IMG/VR virus record: IMGVR_UViG_2718218452_000013 | Reading direction: 5' to 3' (one strand) | Origin: a virus | Taxonomy: Duplodnaviria > Heunggongvirae > Uroviricota > Caudoviricetes | Length of the DNA: 46,500 bases | In this document: piece by piece, positions 11,510 through 14,500 of the stretch | How the letters are laid out: every line of letters starts with the position of its first letter | Position numbering within the stretch: the first letter of the stretch is position 1 | Program-made: the position numbers and the translations under genes | Notes under the pieces: generated by a model | The model's database searches: none | What the model saw: the letters and a program-made list of their open reading frames with translations, nothing else | What the model was told of the DNA's origin: nothing

Positions 11510-14500
11510 AATTACCTCTCGCTTTTCTGCAATAAAAAAGGCGTCATTTCTGACGCCCGTTCTGGGTTATAAAATTCAGCTGATACTGATACCTGCTGTG
11601 GATTTTTTCATCACCACAACCAGCAGATCGCTGATACTGGTTGTTGGTGTCCAGTTATTCGCTCCTGATGAAGATACGGTGAATGTCAGTGTCAGCGTCC
11701 CCTGTCCGGCAGGCATATCTATAACTGAGGAAAATACGCCCTGAGCATCCGTCGTGGACTGATTAAAAATCTCCTGACCATTGCGGGTCACTCTTAACCG
11801 GCAGGTTGAATACCAGTATGACTGTTGGTTATTACTGTTGAAATTCTCATGCTTACCACCGCGGAATAACACTGGCGGTATCATGACCTGCCGGTCAAAT
11901 TTCTGATCATCACTGATTCTTACCGTGATGGTGCCACTGGCATAAGTGCTCGTGCGGGGGAAAGACTTGCTGACCGTTTTGACAATATCACCTTCAATCT
12001 GGTTGGCTGACAGTTTCCCCTTAATCTGACAGTTCTCATTAATCGTGACGTTGTTGAGCGTCCCTGAGTTCGCATTCACACTGCCACTGATATCCGCATT
12101 TTTAGCGGTCAGCTTTCCGTCTGATGTCAGGGAAAATACCGGAGGGCTGCCACCGCTGGTAATGGTGGGGGCTGTCAGGCGCTTCAGGAACACGTCGTTC
12201 ATGAATATCTGGTTGCCCTGCGCCACAAACATCGGCGTTTCATTCCCGTTTGCCGGGTCAATAAACGCGATACGGTTAGCGGCAACCAGAAACTGGCTCA
12301 GCTTGCCTTCCTCCGTGTCCTCCATGCTGAGACCAATACCCGCGACATAATGTTTGCCGTCTTTGGTCTGCTCAATTTTGACGCCCCACATGGCATTCCA
12401 TTTATCGTTAGCGTCCTTCCACTCTTTCGAAAACTCATCCAGTCTGCTGGCGTTATCCTCCGTCAGATCAACTTTTTCCAGCAGCTCTTTACCGAGATGG
12501 GATTCGGTTATCTTGCCTTTGAAAAAATCCAGGTAACCTTCCGCATCATCGCTCGCCCGACCGACGGCCTCCACGAATGCCGATTTGCCAACGGTGTTCA
12601 CACTGCGGATATAAAAGTAATAATCATGGCCCGGTTTGATATTGATACTGGCGGCTATCCAGTACAGCCCCGTGCCAAGGTAGCGGGCTGTGGTTTCAAC
12701 CTGCCTGATATCGGTAATCCGCTTTTCCGAGAACCAGAACTCAAACTGTACCGTCGGATCATAAACGGCAAGATGCGGCGTTGCGGTTATCTGAAAATAG
12801 CCCGGCGTCAGCTCAATCCGCGACGGTGCTGCCGGTGCGGCAATCCGGAACGATACCGACGCCGGATCGCCCTGCTGCCCCCAGGCATTTGCCGCCCGGA
12901 CTGTCAGCCTGTAGTTCCCCGGCGCCAGTTGCGTGAAGCGGTATGTGGTTTCCGTCGTCCGGGCCGTGCTGACCAGCCGCTCACTGCCGTCATCCGCTGC
13001 CACGGTCAGGCGAAGCATAAAGCTCACGCCCTTCACCACCTTCGGCGTGTCCCAGCGCGCCAGCACCTGATATTCCCCGCTGTCTGCGGTGACTTCGGCA
13101 GTCAGGTGCTGCACCGCGGGCGGCGTGACGCCATTCACCGTGCCGCTCTGGTCGCCGTCAAAGTGCGCCCCGTTATCCACGATGGCTTCTTTTTCGGGTA
13201 CATGCTGCACGGCGGTGATGGCATACGTGCCGTCGTCGTTCTCACGGATACTCACGCAGCGGAACAGGCGCTGGCGCAACGTCGGCAACTTCAGCCCCCA
13301 TACGCTGTATTCAGCAACGCCGTCAGGAACACGGCTCACTTTCACCTTCACGCCGTCGGTGACGGACTGGACCTCCACGCTGACCGGATTACCCTGCCCG
13401 TCAACCAGGCTTATCAGCGTGGTGCCGGAGGATGGCAGCGTGATTTCACGGTCGAGCGTCAGCGTCCGGGTCTGGCTGTTCACCGCCAGCACGCGACCAC
13501 CGATGCTGATACCGGCATAGTCATCATCGCAGATTTCAATAACATCGCCCGGCACATGGCGAAGCCCTTCTGCGCCCACGCTGAAATCCACGGTCTGCGT
13601 TTCCAGCAGTTCCGTTTTAATCAGCCACAGCCCGGCTCGGTGTGCCTGCCCCCGACTGGTACAACCAAAGGCATCCATCTTCGTGACATTACGACCGTAA
13701 CGGGCAATGGCCTGCGTATCTTCAACAAGCTCTGTCGCCGTCTCCCAGCCGTTATTCGGGTCAATCCAGTTCACCTCAACGGCATTATGGCGGTCCTTCA
13801 GGGCGCTGAAGCTGTAGCGGAACGGCGCACCATCATCCGGCATCACCACATTACTGCGGTTATAGGTCCACACCTTATCTGATGGTCGGTCCTGCACGAA
13901 CGTCAGCGTCTGCCCGTTCCATACCGGCATACAGCGCATCGCCGAGCAGAAATCACTGAGCACATCCCACGCCTTACGCTGTGTGGTCAGGTACGCATTA
14001 CAGGTAATGCGCGGCTCCGTGCCGCCAAAGCCGTCCGGCACCGACTGGTCGCAGTACTGGCCGATGACATACAGCGCCCATTTATCCACATCCGCCGCAC
14101 CAAGACGTTTCCCCATGCCGTAGCGCGGGTGGGTCAGCATATCCCACAGACACCAGGCCGGGTTGTTGCTGTATGCCGGTTTTAACGTTCCGTCCCAGAT
14201 ACCGCTGTATTGCCGCGTCTGCGGGTTATAGTTCGACGGCACCTGCAGAATACGCCCGCGAAGATGATAATTACGGCTCACCTGCTGGCTGCCGAACTGC
14301 TCCGAATCCACCTTTACGCCGACCAGTGCCGTGTTCGGGTAGCCCTGTTTCACATCGATGATTTCGGTGTATGACGACCAGAGCGTTTTGTTCTGCAGCT
14401 GGTCTGTGGTGCTGTCCGGCGTCATTCTGCGCATCCGGATATTAAACGGGCGCGGCGGCAGGTTATCCACCACCACCGAGGCCAGATACTGCGAGGTGGT

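Follow-up and report, generated by a model that had tools for sequence, protein, structure and literature searches.

Recombination between co-resident lambdoid prophages is well known from EHEC/EPEC-type Escherichia coli, for example from the prophage pool of O157 Sakai. Rearrangements of the MMBIR/FoSTeS type are produced by microhomology-mediated template switching during break-induced replication. Alternative receptor-binding ends, as found at the locus described here, also occur in Gin/Cin/Pin invertible segments, diversity-generating retroelements (DGRs) and silent-cassette conversion. In phage lambda, the J product (gpJ, the central tail fibre or tip attachment protein; PDB 8iyk, and 8xcg with LamB) binds LamB through its last 129 residues. 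When the natural gpJ variant 'A8' (PDB 9wca/9wcb) was fused to lambda gpJ at position 964, DNA was delivered via OmpC and not via LamB (Brodel et al., Nature 2024, PMC11338833).

The window, i.e. the whole stretch of 46,500 nucleotides analysed here, is 100% identical to NZ_CP010119.1 (E. coli strain C3). It represents a prophage of lambda-like type, integrated at argU (the DLP12 site) in a cow E. coli with several lambdoid prophages. Sister strain C7 also carries this prophage at argU. C7 and C3 are 100% identical over 13.8 kb upstream and throughout window positions 1-11316, with the exception of a patch in J and 2 bp in M. A Pin-type recombinase adjoins tfa just left of the window.

We denote the J allele in the full-length gene by J*, the allele in two truncated copies by J', and the receptor-binding domain by RBD. 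The minus strand contains three J-related ORFs, at 4319-7714 (1131 aa), 11576-14800 (1074 aa) and 14867-18607 (1246 aa). The relevant features are as follows:

4319..7714, minus strand: full-length J, 1131 aa; hybrid of a resident N-terminus with an imported J* body and RBD
4319..4705, minus strand: divergent C-terminal RBD of full-length J (J*); 42% identity to lambda J, 57% to J'
11576..11968, minus strand: C-terminal RBD, divergent, in J' copy 2, comprising the final ~130 codons and the stop; 57% identity to J*, 40% to lambda J
14867..15259, minus strand: RBD of J' copy 3; 100% identical to copy 2
32983..34080, plus strand: prophage-borne porin gene (annotation), flanked by Q and the lysis genes; background to an RBD of the OmpC type

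The ORF at 4319-7714 belongs to the lambda gpJ/TipJ family by its length, by its 94-98% identity to lambda J over residues 1-963, by its place after I and before lom (gene order I-J-lom), and by its complete series of gpJ domains (Pfam FNIII-A_GpJ, Phage-tail_3, Ig_J, Phage_Tail_Tip and Ig_GpJ_C). The proteins encoded by J* and J' are 100% identical over residues 1-123 and 95-98% identical over residues 124-1003, but only 57% (76/133) over the last ~130 residues. The presence of two divergent J C-termini in one prophage, which had been proposed from the sequence alone, is therefore borne out, and both J' copies indeed terminate in the variant sequence that was quoted at the time. The divergent end is ~130 residues long, however, and not ~150 as first estimated. 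Copies 2 and 3 of J' share a stretch of 2,724 nt at 100% identity (11317-14040 equals 14608-17331, with a period of 3,291).

HMMER alignments to 8iyk/8xcj were used to compare the C-termini with the corresponding region of lambda J (residues ~1004-1132). Relative to true lambda J (PDB 8iyk; NC_001416), identity was 54/129 (42%) for J* and 53/134 (40%) for J', which places both C-termini, as judged from these alignments, outside the lambda-type (LamB-binding) class. Hence, the earlier assignment of a lambda-type C-terminus to the full-length J does not hold, with only 42% identity over the last 129 residues. The variant domain of J' matches A8 gpJ, the OmpC-dependent variant: the last 170 residues of J' are identical to the solved structure PDB 9wca at 168 of 170 positions. 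This match also rules out that the variant end is a frameshifted or mistranslated lambda-type domain. Near identity to A8 beyond lambda position 964 was found for J' but not for J*, which scored 219 bits against A8 gpJ compared with 357 for J', at ~57% identity in the RBD. We infer from the 99% identity to A8 that J' carries an RBD of the A8/OmpC type and would use OmpC. The RBD of J* is ~95-96% identical to that of J in VT1-Sakai and Stx2a phages; J* might represent a further natural variant, for instance '1A2'. Judging from their sequences, J* and J' plausibly differ in receptor specificity. Both RBD types are common among E. coli prophages, and for one the structure has been solved and the receptor is known. 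Phi21 was considered as a model for OmpC use and rejected, as its native receptor is LamB.

In C7, genes H, M and J' are all intact, with J' at the normal J position. Except for 2 bases at the junctions, the J' copies in the window are 100% identical to this resident J', versus 19 differing sites in comparison with the Qin-site J' of C3, to which the yodB-site J' of C3 is identical. Moreover, J' codons 124-313 contain resident-specific sites that are absent from the other C3 J' copies examined. J' is thus the prophage's own original allele, now displaced, and not a foreign one. This overturns the proposal that the J' block derives from a different lambdoid phage. Relatives show a consistent picture: in OkiPb01675 and O103:H2 12009, J' resides in the DLP12-site prophage and the J* RBD-lom segment in the att-lambda prophage, while the att-lambda prophage of JB2 holds the full 3-kb J*-lom* tract. 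Judging from these relatives, the ancestral layout had J' at the DLP12-site prophage and J*-lom* at the att-lambda prophage.

The sequence at the normal J position of C3 is of the other type, and two further features describe this replacement:

4048..7054, minus strand: gene-conversion patch at its minimum extent (J codon 221 through lom codon 68); source, the C3 att-lambda prophage
3652..4251, minus strand: lom, intact; at least its first 68 codons lie in the patch; its product (WP_001230450.1) is also that of lom in the att-lambda prophage

All informative sites in the patch (304/304) are of the att-lambda type, and there are zero differences between the patch and C3 4318924-4322986, in the att-lambda prophage. 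The crossovers fall within 7055-7165 and 3343-4047, giving a patch size of 3.0-3.8 kb. The sequence comparison thus identifies J* of the full-length gene as the imported allele, and as its donor the att-lambda prophage, ~4 Mb away in the record, and not the adjoining J' fragments. Comparison with C7 shows, at the level of sequence, J'-lom' overwritten by J*-lom* through homologous recombination, a gene conversion in the C3 lineage. In this respect the sequence-only reading, which had invoked homologous recombination as the means of RBD exchange, was right. C3 and C7 have undergone opposite RBD moves: J* moved to the argU prophage in C3, whereas J' moved to the att-lambda prophage in C7. Swapping of RBDs between co-resident prophages is real and already known, and the pair C3/C7 offers a clean natural example of how multi-prophage genomes reshuffle tail-tip specificity.

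The J' copies themselves lie inside the tape-measure gene H, in frame with upstream start codons and splitting H. The features of this region, with breakpoints mapped against C7, are:

11317..17331, minus strand: ~6.0-kb block in H, consisting of 1.83 tandem copies of a 3,291-bp unit
14867..18607, minus strand: fusion ORF H(1-426)::J'(313-1132), in frame; junction A; Pfam TMP_2 and J domains in one product
11576..14800, minus strand: fusion ORF Lom'(1-64, with signal peptide)-Q-J'(124-1132), in frame; junction B
10091..11509, minus strand: fusion ORF Lom'(1-64)-H-H(447-853), in frame; junction C; 58 bp of H lost
9767..10094, minus strand: tail gene M, frameshifted by a C3-specific 2-bp deletion near 10006

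The repeat unit runs from the second nucleotide of J' codon 123 to the stop codon, followed by a 66-nt spacer and lom' (codons 1-64 plus 1 nt), and the block occupies a 58-bp deletion in H. Junction A (17330/17331) has a 2-nt microhomology, junction B (14607/14608) an imperfect microhomology of 7/9, and junction C (11316/11317) a microhomology of 0 nt. Junctions B and C both involve lom' and share the identical last lom' base. That the J' ORFs are fusion proteins, with a third fusion at 10091-11509, had been overlooked in the sequence-only reading. Chi-like octamers (7/8 matches, coding strand) abut two of the breakpoints; we treat them as an observation only, because they are frequent on this strand (17 per 9.6 kb) and their positions misfit the expected cut sites. 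The prophage should be tail-defective and unable to build its own tail, because H is destroyed, its parts now lying in two fusion ORFs, and M carries a frameshift. Of 5,426 complete E. coli genomes, C3 alone contains junctions A, B and C. Scans of metagenomes for junctions B and C yielded no contig with either, and exact-protein look-ups of the three fusion proteins returned this assembly only.

We consider it somewhat probable, at roughly 55%, that the J' block in H is a real scar of break repair rather than a device. The block had instead been proposed to store an alternative RBD cassette beside the expressed J, enabling a switch of host range by homologous recombination. RBD replacement by recombination has indeed already occurred in this lineage, and the RBD is flanked by homology (92-98% upstream, and ~83% over ~300 nt from the 3' end of J into lom), such that gene conversion without crossover into J is physically possible. 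However, the donor of the known replacement was the att-lambda prophage, and J' is the displaced resident allele rather than a foreign store. Its copies destroy the essential gene H, and since they repeat J in direct orientation with M-L-K-I lying in between, a crossover would delete these essential tail genes. No productive path leads from the J' fragments back to J. As a reservoir they add nothing, because the C3 genome has two intact J' genes at other places. The J'-in-H layout is conserved in no other genome of the 5,426, with C7 and the relatives showing the ordinary order, and neither invertase sites nor inverted repeats were found in the window. The stored-cassette proposal is hence largely refuted, and we regard it as highly unlikely; as a host-range device the layout has no significance, being a one-off that kills the tail operon. 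Two related candidates were rejected as well. A Gin/Cin/Pin-type switch acting on J conflicts with the direct orientation of all J copies and with the zero inverted repeats of at least 100 nt in the window. A DGR conflicts with the 100% identity of the J' copies and with the differences between J* and J', which extend across the whole domain (57% identity) and include indels. Still less credible is that the in-frame fusions are functional, for example with the Lom signal peptide exporting the C-terminal part of J' in the lysogen, whereby OmpC would be masked or titrated and OmpC-dependent phages excluded. All three junctions are in frame (a chance of ~1 in 27), Lom'(1-64) has an intact Sec-type signal peptide and retains its native 66-nt upstream spacer, and the J' RBD is of the OmpC type. 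Yet the RBD engages surface loops from the exterior, and it is not apparent how an exported product would get to the cell surface. Furthermore, the fusion arrangement is a singleton and very recent, with zero sequence divergence, and thus gives no sign of selection. It is extremely improbable that a real rearrangement produced, from the native lom upstream region, a Lom-signal-peptide::J' protein acting as an OmpC decoy or exclusion factor; if it did, an anti-phage function would have arisen anew from a repair accident.

An assembly artefact deserves more weight. The true C3 prophage would then have the ordinary order H-M-L-K-I-J, and the 6-kb J' block, perhaps together with the 2-bp deletion in M, would be an assembly or finishing error. 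The C3 record (GCA_001900515.1) is a long-read assembly of the 2014 era, of a genome with at least six near-identical lambdoid tail modules; the J'-in-H arrangement is a singleton; the tandem J' copies are 100% identical; and many tail genes of C3 and C7 are flagged as frameshifted. The same record contains a unique perfect zero-spacer palindrome at 5333813/4, with 1.2-kb arms, in recE, and a perfect palindrome without spacer classically betrays a chimeric hairpin read or contigs that were joined falsely. C3 and C7 also differ in large-scale order at prophage boundaries. Both the palindrome and the difference in order were counted against a scar, as were the restriction of the junctions to the C3 record and the absence of microhomology at junction C. 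In contrast, misassembly normally joins sequences at homology, while the three junctions here are non-homologous, and two junctions at exactly the same lom' base are not expected from random chimeric reads. The flanking consensus is error-free relative to C7 over >20 kb. Moreover, the resident-specific sites in codons 124-313 of J' copy 2 are missing from every other C3 J locus examined, which implies that reads with that sequence must exist. An artefact is therefore a possibility to be taken seriously, though one that we lean against. When an early long-read assembly shows unusual gene fusions in the tail region of a prophage, these should be confirmed at read level before being interpreted.

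If the J' block is a break-repair scar, its history may have been as follows. The prophage would originally have had the A8-like, OmpC-type J' as its tail-tip allele, as C7 still does. A double-strand break at lom' codon 64 would have been followed by error-prone repair synthesis from the lom'-64 end, twice, with re-priming at short or no homology. This would have placed 1.83 copies of the displaced segment, from J' codon 123/124 to lom' codon 64, in the 58-bp gap in H, and the break would finally have been bridged with the att-lambda prophage as template. The end of lom' corresponds to window position 4060, and informative sites of the patch extend to 4048, so that the patch covers the lom' end. 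One break-repair episode would account for the common lom'-64 end, for a patch spanning that site and for the nearby 2-bp deletion in M. We infer such a single episode for patch and insertion, although they may have been separate events. Tentatively, and with more doubt than conviction, the locus might be seen as a natural snapshot of one break-repair event in which an RBD swap between prophages was coupled to capture of the displaced allele.

In comparison with known systems, the full-length gene agrees with lambda J in identity of the gene, position and domain order, but the LamB-binding last 129 residues of lambda J are only 40-42% identical to both alleles found here. The 'A8' gpJ variant resembles J' almost completely (168/170 over the last 170 residues), unlike J*, which is only ~57% identical to it in the RBD. 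As in other cases of recombination between co-resident prophages, there are several near-identical tail modules per chromosome, J-lom tracts are 100% identical between prophages, and clean gene-conversion patches separate the sister strains C3 and C7. In contrast to these cases, the displaced tract was also tandemly inserted in H, which is not a product of ordinary gene conversion. Programmed tail-fibre variation differs in that the J' copies are direct, mutually 100% identical and unconserved in arrangement; the Pin system, moreover, bears on stf and tfa, genes for the side tail fibre, and not on J. MMBIR/FoSTeS-type rearrangement shares with the J' block a nearby templated insertion, junctions with 0-7 nt of imperfect homology (2 nt, 7/9 and 0 nt), a small deletion at the acceptor (58 bp) and an adjacent frameshift. 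One junction here is without any microhomology, but these shared features are consistent with microhomology-mediated rearrangement.

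The window matches approximately positions 248,782-295,281 of NZ_CP010119.1, the genome of the cow-derived Escherichia coli strain C3, at 100% identity. The prophage is lambda-like and occupies the tRNA-Arg gene argU beside intD, i.e. the DLP12 site. The minus strand encodes its late genes, which are transcribed in the order G/T, 14867-18607, 11576-14800, 10091-11509, M, L, K, I, J, lom, stf, tfa. The three ORFs upstream of M are all fusions, involving tape-measure gene H, lom and J', the J allele found in two fragment copies (J* is the allele of the full-length gene).

14867-18607, minus strand: H::J' fusion ORF (copy 3 of J)
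11576-14800, minus strand: Lom::J' fusion ORF (copy 2 of J)
10091-11509, minus strand: Lom::H fusion ORF
9767-10094, minus strand: tail gene M, with a 2-bp deletion near 10006
4319-7714, minus strand: full-length J (J*)
3652-4251, minus strand: lom

The side tail fibre gene stf (673-3593, minus strand) is frameshifted in C3 and its sister strain C7 alike, and its ORF 2184-3593 continues into an out-of-frame, Arg/Pro-rich translation. A Pin-type recombinase gene just left of the window start (L001 1711-2301) adjoins tfa (98-673) and stf. Such recombinases are the usual partners of invertible side-tail-fibre segments, and this one has no relation to J.

In C7 (NZ_CP010240.1), this prophage occupies the same site, and its H, M and 1132-aa J are all intact. 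The two strains are identical over window positions 17330-31100 and 1-11316, except for 304 differences in the block 4048-7054 and a 2-bp (GG) deletion near 10006 that frameshifts M in C3. Apart from the J patch and the insertion in H, this deletion is the sole difference across a stretch of more than 24 kb. The J gene at the normal position in C7 is J', 100% identical to both J' copies in the window; the resident allele is therefore J', and J* is the newcomer. The sequence-only reading had the opposite polarity, with J' acquired from a different phage and stored beside a lambda-type J. Codons 124-313 of J' in copy 2 match the C7 resident allele exactly and differ at 19 sites from the J' genes in the Qin-site and yodB-site prophages of C3, and hence the fragments derive from the resident gene, not from a foreign phage.

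The donor of J* resides in the same genome, where several further lambdoid prophages are present. The C3 att-lambda prophage sits between bioA and ybhB and carries nleA, cif and nleH; its J-lom region, at 4,318,924-4,322,986, encodes the same Lom protein as the window. In a three-way alignment, window 4048-7054 was of the att-lambda type at all 304 informative sites, with resident-type sites on either side, and the crossovers fall within 7055-7165 (J codons 184-220) and 3343-4047. This alignment shows the J*-lom tract to be a clean patch of gene conversion, 3.0-3.8 kb long, produced by homologous replacement from the co-resident prophage. In the relatives OkiPb01675 and O103:H2 12009, the prophage at argU carries J' and the one at att-lambda carries the J* receptor-binding domain (RBD)-lom segment; in JB2, the J*-lom* tract of the att-lambda prophage is complete (3 kb). 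J' at argU and J* at att-lambda is the ancestral layout. The att-lambda J of C7 (L006 27503-30900, frameshifted) carries the J' allele from approximately alignment column 1250 onwards, a conversion from J* to J' and so opposite in direction to that in the window. Full-length J' genes, identical to each other, are also present in the C3 Qin-site and yodB-site prophages. Their J-lom regions (L005 12342-16406 and L007 15338-19402) are 100% identical over 4.28 kb, as are many of their tail proteins, reflecting either recent duplication or homogenisation.

The three J-related ORFs and the distinct ending of both J' copies were confirmed. The J' copies are exact tandem repeats (11317-14040 equals 14608-17331; 2,724 nt, 100% identity, period 3,291). 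J* and J' proteins are identical at residues 1-123, 95-98% identical at 124-1003, and 57% identical (76/133) in the last ~130 residues. The J' ending is a real homologous domain, with 168 of 170 residues matching PDB 9wca/9wcb ('A8 gpJ'). Calling the full-length J lambda-type was mistaken, however, since the last 129 residues share 42% (J*) and 40% (J') identity with lambda J (PDB 8iyk; NC_001416). Two RBD alleles do co-occur in this prophage, and both are common: at ≥99% match, E. coli genome searches returned the J' end in 279 records and the J* end in 232, and many Stx-converting and other lambdoid phages carry them as well.

Natural gpJ C-termini 'A8' and '1A2', joined to lambda gpJ at residue 964, gave chimeras that delivered via OmpC in lamB-deleted cells (Brodel et al., Nature 2024, PMC11338833; see also bioRxiv 10.1101/2025.02.28.640725). 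J' is 99% identical to A8 and is therefore predicted to use OmpC. The prophage also contains a porin gene (32983-34080, plus strand), with antiterminator Q (quuD) on one side and the lysis genes on the other. The porin genes nmpC (in DLP12) and lc (in phage PA-2) are placed likewise. The porin and an OmpC-type resident RBD may be linked via lysogenic conversion or exclusion.

The fusions arise from a ~6.0-kb block (11317-17331) that splits H and takes the place of 58 bp of it. It comprises 1.83 copies of a unit running from J' codon 123/124 to the stop, through a 66-nt spacer, to codons 1-64 of lom', the lom next to J'. The product of 14867-18607 joins H residues 1-426 to J' 313-1132; that of 11576-14800 joins Lom' 1-64, including its signal peptide, via a hybrid Gln codon to J' 124-1132; and that of 10091-11509 joins Lom' 1-64 via a hybrid His codon to H 447-853. 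The reading frame is kept at all three junctions; the odds of this by chance are ~1 in 27.

We consider the insertion in H a real event with a probability of roughly 0.55; an assembly artefact is a more doubtful, though serious, alternative. The junctions occurred in C3 only among 5,426 complete genomes and in none of the metagenome contigs searched, and the fusion proteins are on record from the C3 assembly only, which counts against a real event. Assemblers err at repeats, yet these junctions are non-homologous: there are 2 nt of microhomology at junction A (17330/1), an imperfect 7/9 match at junction B (14607/8) and none at junction C (11316/7). Both junctions leaving lom' share the same last lom' base, copy 2 has allele-specific sites that were absent from every other C3 J locus examined, and the flanking consensus is flawless, all of which argue against a misassembly. 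In its favour, the C3 record has a second unique oddity, a zero-spacer palindrome in recE, and its large-scale order is unlike that of C7 at prophage borders.

The palindrome (L004 32623-35006; C3 record 5,332,622-5,335,005; centre 5,333,813/4; arms of 1,192 nt) was called perfect, with arms also given as 99% identical. At its centre, the early regions of two Qin-like prophages meet head to head. It occurs in C3 only among the 5,426 genomes, and reflects a fold-back rearrangement or else a misjoin. The att-lambda prophage lies at ~4.32 Mb in C3 and at the record end (~5.28 Mb) in C7 (L004, L006, L008), while the C3 record ends in the Qin-site prophage instead. Either prophages have mediated an inversion on the megabase scale, or the two assemblies differ.

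If the insertion is real, we prefer a single break-repair episode as its origin. A break at lom' codon 64 would have been followed by repair synthesis that began in H and switched to J' codon 313. At lom' codon 64 the broken template would have run out; synthesis would then have re-primed at J' codon 123/124, reached the template end a second time and re-primed in H 58 bp downstream, before passing through M, where it left the 2-bp error. The broken site would finally have been crossed by copying the att-lambda prophage. Such an episode would explain the shared lom' end, the patch covering that end (equivalent to window 4060; last patch site 4048), and the clustering of all C3-specific changes within a 13-kb stretch that is otherwise identical. 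Chi-like octamers (7/8 matches, coding strand) abut two breakpoints: ACTGGTGG directly precedes the repeated unit, and GCTGGTGA spans the lom' end. The 58 bp lost from H contain a third, GCTGATGG. Such sites are frequent on this strand, however; the window has 61 Chi-like sites on its minus strand and 19 on its plus strand.

14608-14615 and 11315-11322 (also 14606-14613), minus strand: Chi-like octamers; parental sites at L002 15292-15299, 11995-12002 and 19278-19285

Real or artefact, the J' copies are no switching system. H and M have essential roles in lambda, and the prophage is probably unable to make its own tails because H is destroyed and M frameshifted. Since the J' copies are in direct orientation to J and M-L-K-I separate them from it, a crossover would delete these genes. 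Non-crossover conversion of J by J' is possible in principle, because there is homology on both sides, but H would stay unrescued. The C3 genome already has two other J' genes, both intact, that serve as donors. Of the proposal that a stored J' serves host-range switching, the part that holds is that recombination does swap RBD alleles; the 'store' is debris or artefact, in a layout that is not conserved and that destroys H. Invertible-segment, retroelement and silent-cassette models were excluded, as the window has no inverted repeats of 100 nt or more, the copies are invariant and the arrangement is not conserved. The swapping of RBD alleles itself is already known.
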